From the NCBI GenBank assembly GCA_964394975.1, contig CAYMZR010000001.1, positions 12-64,011 on the forward strand: a stretch of DNA of 64,000 bases. Direction: 5' to 3'. Below the pieces are notes generated by a model, which ran no database searches, was not told the origin of the DNA, and worked only from the letters and a program-made list of their open reading frames with translations. The DNA comes from an uncultured Dehalococcoidia bacterium (GTDB lineage Bacteria; Chloroflexota; Dehalococcoidia; Lucifugimonadales; UBA826). Of the stretch, positions 63,523-63,719 are shown one piece after another; within the stretch, counting starts at the first letter, position 1, and every line of letters begins with the position of its first letter. Made by a program: the position numbers and the translations under genes.

Positions 63523-63560
63523 AAAAAGAAAGACCCCACCTGAATCCACGGGCGGGGTCT
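63523..63560 (-). terminator. Intrinsic terminator inside the metY leader (attenuator terminator)
   Basis: Minus strand: AGACCCCGCC (63560-63551), loop CGTGGATTCA, GGTGGGGTCT (63540-63531). This is a 10-bp stem with one G-U pair, followed by TTCTTTTT (63530-63523). Confidence 0.7.
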
Positions 63561-63585
63561 TTTTTTATGTCTATTCCCCGCCGAA

Positions 63586-63633
63586 TCAGATCAAACAACA
63601 ATCCATGCTGCAGCACATCATGACACACATCAT
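63586..63633 (-). CDS. Candidate Met/Cys-rich leader peptide [15 protein letters not shown]
   Basis: ATG ATG TGT GTC ATG ATG TGC TGC AGC ATG GAT TGT TGT TTG ATC TGA. 10 of 15 codons are Met or Cys. The stop lies 3 nt before the antiterminator arm GGCGGGG (63582-63576). There is no strong SD; AAGG lies 14 nt upstream. Confidence 0.5.
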
Positions 63634-63690
63634 ATGCGCGCAATCAACCTTATCGTTTTGTTCCAAGTTATGCGGGTTCATCGGGCGCAA

Positions 63691-63719
63691 ACTCTACATT
63701 CACAGAGAGCACATGTCAA
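63691..63719 (-). promoter_or_regulatory. Candidate sigma-70-type promoter of the metY-metA operon
   Basis: Minus strand: TTGACA (63719-63714), 17-nt spacer, TAGAGT (63696-63691). Confidence 0.5.

Follow-up and report, generated by a model that had tools for sequence, protein, structure and literature searches.

Ribosome-mediated attenuation is known with specificities for Trp, His, Phe, Leu, Thr, Ile/Val and, more recently, Cys; the control of methionine genes is attributed to S-adenosylmethionine (SAM) riboswitches, T-boxes and repressors. The window considered here is a stretch of 64,000 nt of contig CAYMZR010000001.1 from an uncultured Dehalococcoidia bacterium. The element under study lies upstream of metY-metA in this window and consists of a promoter, a leader open reading frame (ORF) rich in Met and Cys codons and a GC-rich hairpin followed by a U-tract; all of its coordinates refer to the minus strand. 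The in silico evidence makes it highly probable that the element is a ribosome-mediated (leader-peptide) transcription attenuator of metY-metA, which senses charged tRNA-Met and tRNA-Cys.

The enterobacterial attenuators (trpL, hisL, thrL, leuL, pheL and ilvL) share with this locus a promoter-proximal short ORF, rich in codons for the product of the pathway and followed by an intrinsic terminator. The 5′ arm of the terminator pairs alternatively near the leader stop codon, and the untranslated RNA has a default 1:2 structure. The thr and ilv attenuators are also alike in sensing more than one amino acid. The locus differs from the enterobacterial systems in its Met and Cys codons, in a leader start predicted no more than 3 nt from the 5′ end and lacking a Shine–Dalgarno sequence, and in its phylum, Chloroflexota.

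Cysteine leaders have been described in several other groups. The leaderless polycysteine short ORFs (sORFs) of mycobacteria are translational attenuators (Canestrari et al., 10.1101/834739). In Actinobacteria, Cys leader peptides without terminators were predicted, and no RNA element was found for methionine operons (Seliverstov et al. 2005, PMC1262725). These sORFs and the leader of the window have in common consecutive Cys codons near the 3′ end and a position before sulfur amino-acid genes; a leaderless-type start and ribosome pausing as the sensor, both predicted for the window, would be further common points. However, the mycobacterial and actinobacterial sORFs unmask a Shine–Dalgarno sequence and have no terminator hairpin, whereas the window has a canonical terminator, a free Shine–Dalgarno sequence and Met codons as numerous as Cys codons. 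Closer in mechanism are the uORFC-8-2 motif before cysS in Rhodobacterales, for which a Cys-codon upstream ORF with a terminator was predicted (Brewer et al. 2021, PMC8632094), and the cysS leader of Deinococcus deserti, a predicted leaderless Cys leader with a terminator (PMC4007540). Both are predicted ribosome-mediated attenuators that combine tandem Cys codons with an intrinsic terminator, but they control a tRNA synthetase, contain two Cys codons only, lack Met codons and belong to other taxa.

The SAM-I (S-box) control of metY concerns the same gene, takes the same position and also acts through premature termination; it differs in that SAM is sensed by an RNA aptamer, which the window lacks. 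No leader-peptide attenuator with Met codons, and no such control of metY, was found in the full-text literature; most subscription papers lay outside this search, and an earlier description is possible. If the leader truly senses Met, the amino acid of the start codon would also be sensed by ribosome stalling, which raises the question of how initiation and elongation compete for Met-tRNA in starvation.

Promoter and Met/Cys leader

The promoter is composed of a −35 hexamer TTGACA (63714–63719) and a −10 hexamer TAGAGT (63691–63696; TAAAGT in relatives), separated by a 17-nt spacer. It agrees with the consensus at 10 of 12 positions and is the top promoter-like site within 61000–64000. The promoter is located between the stop codon of the upstream gene (63780) and the leader ORF and is kept in relatives; the −35 hexamer is invariant in eight aligned relatives, while the spacer varies. 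The close relatives comprise six distinct loci (L001, L081, L002, L003, L004 and L084), plus duplicates, with metY genes 93–98% identical to that of the window. A preliminary description of this DNA had listed the promoter, a short ORF (63633–63586), the motif GGCGGGG, a hairpin with its U-tail, a Shine–Dalgarno sequence and the metY start at ATG 63463, and all of these are present where it had placed them.

The leader ORF (63586–63681) has 31 codons and a TGA stop codon, and its frame is open in the six distinct relatives. It begins with ATG 63681, which lies 9 nt downstream of the −10 hexamer; the ATG is found at exactly this distance in all close relatives. Indels within the ORF are of 12 nt and 3 nt only, and indels of 1–2 nt occur just outside it. 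In the first 16 leader codons of the relatives’ alignment, the differences at codon positions 1, 2 and 3 number 70, 48 and 123, which is coding-like, and the two other frames of this part contain stop codons in most sequences. There is no Shine–Dalgarno sequence at the start of the 31-codon ORF. The promoter geometry, with a 5′ untranslated region of 3 nt or less, suggests that the leader mRNA is probably leaderless-like, and translation most likely starts at ATG 63681, as the comparison of sequences indicates.

The preliminary description had proposed a 15-codon ORF starting at ATG 63633, in frame with ATG 63681 and 48 nt downstream of it. This shorter ORF exists, is rich in Met and Cys and is not a product of chance, but it is probably not the translated unit: it has only an AAGG 13 nt upstream, the relatives have no Shine–Dalgarno sequence there, and it is the position of the upstream ATG that is invariant.

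The sensing tract (63595–63642) covers codons 14–29, with five Met and six Cys codons, ATG 63633 among them. Met and Cys account for 11 of the last 18 leader codons (binomial P ~7e-13, the background being the Met and Cys contents of the window’s long ORFs, 2.2% and 1.0%). When the whole window is read in six frames, the leader ORF is the only ATG-initiated ORF of 8–60 aa to contain at least seven Met or Cys residues in a 10-residue stretch. When the leader itself was shuffled, none of 20,000 versions reached 7 of 10 and 0.18% reached 5 of 10. The C-terminal halves of the relatives’ leaders vary in sequence and length and are Met/Cys-rich throughout; those compared with the 16-residue tract of the window are HMMCCVMGSCMT, HMMCCDMGCCMN and NMCEMMCCVMDIMT.

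These figures bear on the view that the ORF arose by chance beside the terminator of the upstream gene and has no regulatory role. Short ORFs and hairpins are common, and nothing more speaks for this view; the enrichment (P ~1e-12, 0 of 20,000 shuffles), the conserved promoter between 63780 and the ORF, the relatives free of frame-breaking changes and an arrangement that is both conserved and convergently recurrent render it extremely improbable.

Terminator, antiterminator and modelled ribosome positions

The terminator is formed by region 3, the 5′ arm AAAGACCCCGCCCG (63549–63562), and region 4, the 3′ arm CAGGUGGGGUCUUU (63529–63542), where relatives show compensatory changes. Its core pairs AGACCCCGCC (63560–63551) with GGUGGGGUCU (63540–63531) in 10 bp, one of them G·U, and is followed by the tail UUCUUUUU (63530–63523). 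The U-tract, UUUCUUUUU (63523–63531), is the expected site of premature 3′ ends; it has seven U in nine positions, stands immediately 3′ of a GC-rich stem of 10–14 bp and is kept in all relatives. The hairpin and U-tract constitute the strongest terminator-like site in the window. A simple terminator script missed it, owing to the C within the U-tract; it was found by a terminator scan and by RNAfold. The fold of the whole leader region has z = −3.0 relative to shuffled sequences, and the terminator is kept in the consensus fold of the eight-sequence alignment, with compensatory AU to GC changes at two stem positions.

The hairpin (63523–63570) is also flanked by an A-tract and scores as a plus-strand terminator (−20.2 kcal/mol); no plus-strand gene converges on it. 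Elsewhere in the window, on the plus strand at 10150–10215, there is a canonical terminator, GAGACCGUGG..CGGUCUC followed by a U-run (−16.9 kcal/mol), 47 nt past an ORF end. As this site shows, gene ends in the organism do carry terminators of the same kind.

Region 2 (63576–63592), the 5′ strand of the antiterminator, has the sequence GAUCUGAUUCGGCGGGG. It includes the last sense codons, the stop codon TGA (63588–63586) and, three nt past it, the core GGCGGGG (63582–63576), which is the exact complement of CCCCGCC (63557–63551) within region 3. The same CCCCGCC is thus common to the terminator and the antiterminator. In the alignment of relatives, UGAUUCRGCGGGGA is the top-conserved block outside the promoter.

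The pairing of the antiterminator in relatives is different. The contiguous 7-bp helix GGCGGGG:CCCCGCC, described beforehand as the antiterminator, is exact in this window and is found in this window only; in the relatives, GGGG:CCCC is combined with a pairing between UGAUUCAG, the segment that includes the stop codon, and the loop of the terminator (CUGARUC). The difference arises because the hairpin has been flipped: the stem-loop of the window (63559–63532) is identical at 27 of 28 positions to the reverse complement of that of L081, and at 18 of 28 in direct orientation. The terminator hairpin is thus inverted in place in the window, and the flipped arm happens to complement region 2 exactly. 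On paper, the flipped stem-loop is still predicted to terminate. The idea that one consensus helix serves as the antiterminator in all relatives was rejected, as the register differs after the flip.

A duplex scan was adopted for this reason, in which each 18-nt window of the leader was paired with the terminator 5′ arm and loop and compared with shuffled windows. In the window and in the six close relatives (7/7), the best partner of the 5′ arm and loop starts 1–4 nt before the stop codon. The duplex energies of these best partners are −12.8 to −19.0 kcal/mol, matched by 0–3% of the shuffled windows; the best duplex of the window has −19.0 kcal/mol, and the mean of its shuffled counterparts is −7.1. 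The Met/Cys ORF, the terminator and the stop-proximal antiterminator strand are all kept in the six distinct close relatives, in agreement with the conservation expected of the element.

Two mutually exclusive hairpins had been proposed. Both are predicted, and a third pairing, conserved to a degree, has to be added for the untranslated RNA. Region 1, CCCGC (63672–63676, leader codons 2–4), pairs with GCGGG (63581–63577) in minimum free energy (MFE) folds of the untranslated RNA. In the consensus fold, this 1:2 pairing appears as CCGC (leader codons 3–4) with GCGG just past the stop codon (alignment columns 45–48/141–144, in 5–7 of 8 sequences).

The effect of a ribosome was modelled with a mask that reached from −15 to +12 relative to the A-site codon, the transcript being folded up to the terminator loop. 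With the mask at the stop codon, the terminator 5′ arm of the close clade retains only −0.3 to −2.2 kcal/mol of pairing. With the mask at any Met or Cys codon of the window, −6.5 to −10.5 kcal/mol of sequestration of this arm remains; among the relatives, the corresponding value for the most effective stall codon is −4.7 to −8.3 kcal/mol. In the model, then, a mask at the stop codon abolishes the antiterminator and a mask at the Met/Cys codons leaves it intact, which is the geometry of the trp and his attenuators, as had been suggested.

The following course of events in vivo is our inference, from the start of transcription and leaderless initiation to stalling and termination. Transcription would begin a few bases before ATG 63681, and the 31-codon leader would be translated. 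When Met-tRNA and Cys-tRNA are plentiful, the ribosome would reach UGA (63588–63586) and cover region 2 (63592–63576); the arm containing CCCCGCC would then be free to pair with GGUGGGG, the hairpin and U-tract would form, and RNA polymerase would terminate near 63523. When either amino acid is scarce, the ribosome would stall within 63642–63595, and the exposed GGCGGGG would pair with CCCCGCC once the latter is transcribed; this antiterminator would block the terminator, and transcription would proceed into metY-metA. If the leader is not translated at all, CCCGC (63676–63672) could sequester GCGGG, favouring termination.

Several points weigh against attenuation of this kind. With 9 nt between the −10 box and the ATG, the spacing slightly exceeds what a strictly leaderless start would call for; the 1:2 pairing is disrupted in L003 and L081; and the computed antiterminator gain is small in L001 and L084 (−2 to −6 kcal/mol). 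Few canonical terminators are seen in the window, and the mechanism presupposes that intrinsic termination and transcription–translation coupling are efficient in Dehalococcoidia. Met limitation should impair the initiation of the leader as well, which could blunt Met sensing. The terminator fold (−21.5 kcal/mol) is more stable at equilibrium than the isolated antiterminator (−14.1 kcal/mol), the two energies that the preliminary description had proposed to compare; the switch must therefore be kinetic, as in classical systems. In the trp attenuator of E. coli, structures 3:4 and 2:3 have energies of similar order. The support is wholly in silico and the organism is uncultured.

The same Met/Cys-sensing ORF might instead act on translation or mRNA stability, with the hairpin serving as an RNA-stability or ribosome-access element. 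The leaderless-looking start recalls the polycysteine sORFs that attenuate translation in mycobacteria (10.1101/834739), and there are low-GC relatives that have poly-Cys ORFs without clear terminators. However, the hairpin is followed directly by a canonical 7/9 U-tract kept in all relatives. The metY Shine–Dalgarno sequence AAAGGAGAG (63469–63477) lies 46 nt downstream of the hairpin, has no complementarity to the Met/Cys tract and stays single-stranded in both the MFE and the centroid fold, which argues against Shine–Dalgarno sequestration of the mycobacterial type. A role in translation or stability is thus judged unlikely.

In the N-terminal part of the leader, the amino-acid motif M-x-P-[HQ]-x-L-x-Q shows weak conservation among relatives, which a pure codon sensor would not need. 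It could point to an arrest peptide that senses SAM, Met or homocysteine in the ribosome tunnel, as in TnaC or plant CGS1; direct binding of a ligand by the RNA is a related option. The leaders of other lineages have only Met/Cys richness, though, and no common peptide motif, and an aptamer would find no space: the leader stop codon and the terminator arm are only 23 nt apart, the remainder evolves as coding sequence, and no Rfam family corresponds to the leader. Sensing by an arrest peptide or a ligand-binding RNA is accordingly regarded as very unlikely.

A further possibility is a functional Cys/Met-rich micropeptide, metal-binding or a precursor of a ribosomally synthesised and post-translationally modified peptide, standing before an ordinary bidirectional terminator. 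Peptides of such composition can bind metals, and the hairpin with its A-tract and U-tract does look bidirectional. On the other side, the hairpin has nothing convergent with it on the plus strand, the neighbourhood encodes no modification enzymes, and the stop-codon segment is specifically complementary to the terminator arm; between lineages, it is the position relative to the terminator and metY that is conserved and not the peptide. A micropeptide function seems most improbable.

Riboswitch search, relatives and independent occurrences

A scan with Rfam models over 63300–64000 gave no match to any SAM riboswitch (SAM-I, II, III, IV, V, I/IV and SAM/S-adenosylhomocysteine), even at E up to 10, and none to the T-box (RF00230) at the same limit. 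The exclusion of a SAM riboswitch, on which the preliminary description depended, thus holds. No curated leader family of Rfam reaches its gathering threshold over the leader; the best scores belong to Thr_leader (21.2 bits) and rnk_pseudo, the Pseudomonas rnk leader (21.3 bits), against a gathering threshold of 55, and both are driven by the terminator. In the whole window, only two tRNAs, Gly and Ile, and no riboswitch were found at the gathering thresholds. The same scan detects SAM-I upstream of the metY homologues L132, L141, L149, L157 and L159, and the negative result in the window is therefore meaningful.

Three of these homologues, in low-GC metagenome contigs (L132:1172–1500, L141:1118–1488 and L157:1091–1494), have a SAM-I riboswitch (62–70 bits) and then a poly-Cys ORF before metY. 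The ORFs end in ..KGCCCCR*, ..IMCCCCCQ* and ..MIYCCCCCC*, respectively; their Cys codons lie in hairpins, and there is no clear U-tract terminator after them. This arrangement may be a tandem of a SAM sensor and a Cys-tRNA sensor. It suggests that two inputs are read there by two modules, whereas in the window both would be read by one leader peptide, with Met codons replacing the riboswitch.

The closest metY loci in the genome collection come from marine Dehalococcoidia/Chloroflexota metagenome-assembled genomes (MAGs), with identities of 98, 94, 93, 93 and 85%. The window is accordingly assigned to a marine member of the Dehalococcoidia, and its lineage appears to be SAR202-like. In more distant Dehalococcoidia (L071, L099 and L110, 76% MetY identity), a leader MNFTAMQNMRFMMMYMMMMMCTM... 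led by a Shine–Dalgarno sequence, and then a terminator, precede metY. Another Dehalococcoidia group (L079:2650–3000, L080:575–924 and L121, 77% MetY identity) has an sORF, MNIYSLYICCCTGR*, within the roughly 350 nt that precede metY. The stop codon of this sORF falls within the loop of a small hairpin, U6 follows the hairpin, and a second strong terminator comes after it; a conserved region of about 150 nt upstream in the L079/L080 group has no Rfam match.

Leaders of comparable composition, without sequence similarity to those of the close relatives, also occur before metY in high-GC contigs: ...NMCMDMCMCMPMRVEVHGG in L148, ...QMRMCMCMCPRLRVEVHGS in L151 and ...CMVMCMCMRARVAGHGG in L155. In all three, the ATG lies 8–10 nt past a −10-like box, and the terminator is of the form ACCCGC...GCGGGU-U6. 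The nearest named MetY proteins of this group belong to Vicinamibacteria and Thermoanaerobaculia (Acidobacteriota) MAGs, and one Thermoanaerobaculia MAG, L165, has the leader MSTARRFAAAEMCVCMCTTTHMRAAVRDE (...EMCVCMCTTTHMRAAVRDE) with a terminator of the same type. The Acidobacteriota leaders (L148:60–327, L151, L155 and L165:740–1000) are leaderless-looking, of the MCMCMC type, and carry a GCGGGU(C) antiterminator strand within the ORF. Their alternating AUG and UGC codons are self-complementary and form a hairpin within the sensing tract.

Across lineages, the leaders have Met/Cys richness in common and share no peptide motif, while their position relative to the terminator and metY is kept. 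It appears rather likely that leaders with Met/Cys codons and intrinsic terminators represent an undescribed, convergently evolved class of attenuators on metY, in marine Dehalococcoidia, likely SAR202, and in soil Acidobacteriota. In this class, Met sense codons, read by a tRNA that is charged by the synthetase of the initiator tRNA, would act as the sensor and take over the function of the SAM riboswitch that elsewhere stands in tandem with a poly-Cys ORF. An abundant uncultured deep-ocean lineage may thus regulate sulfur amino-acid synthesis by two inputs, Met and Cys, within a single 160-nt element. The Acidobacteriota versions and the tandems of a SAM riboswitch with a poly-Cys ORF suggest that sensor modules have been exchanged before the same gene in evolution.

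The MetY of the window is 76–79% identical to MetY of Prochlorococcus and marine Synechococcus (L007–L078). Such unusually high identity across phyla suggests horizontal transfer among marine bacteria. No comparable leader ORF or terminator was found at these cyanobacterial metY loci. P0119, considered as a possible cultured acidobacterial homologue, was rejected; its flanks are AT-rich and cyanobacterial-looking, and it has no leader.

The metY-metA operon and its neighbours

Gene metY (62138–63463, minus strand) encodes an O-acetylhomoserine/O-acetylserine (OAH/OAS) sulfhydrylase of 441 aa (TIGR01326, 665 bits; cutoff, 495). Through this enzyme, reduced sulfur enters the synthesis of homocysteine/Met as well as that of Cys, and both types of codon in the leader fit the pathway, in line with the agreement between codon content and pathway noted before. 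The ORF list of the window gives a metY ORF of 501 aa from TTG 63643, with an N-terminal extension of 60 aa. This extension is an artefact, as had been suspected: the relatives align from residue 1 at ATG 63463, and their regions upstream of metY hold the leader where the list has the extension. In practical terms, the start of metY is corrected, and unannotated sORFs missed by gene callers are flagged.

The second gene of the operon, metA (61167–62072, minus strand), encodes a divergent MetA-family homoserine O-acyltransferase (NF047918 MetA_acetyl; E 2.9e-59, short of the curated cutoff). The gap that separates metY, with its stop at 62138, from metA, with its start at 62072, contains an intercistronic hairpin of 13 bp (62127–62096, minus strand, about −20 kcal/mol) without a good U-tract. 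A hairpin of 9–17 bp is present at the metY-metA junction in all relatives examined (L001, L081, L002, L003, L084, L005, L071 and L110), with entirely different stem sequences. Structure is thus conserved here and sequence is not, and the hairpin may stabilise the transcript between the two cistrons, mark a processing site or terminate transcription in part.

Downstream of the operon, also on the minus strand, are genes for an F420-dependent LLM-class oxidoreductase (59556–60434, TIGR03619) and for a protein that, judged from its translation only, looks like an acyl-CoA dehydrogenase (58390–59553). These neighbours fit the gene content reported for marine SAR202-type Chloroflexota.

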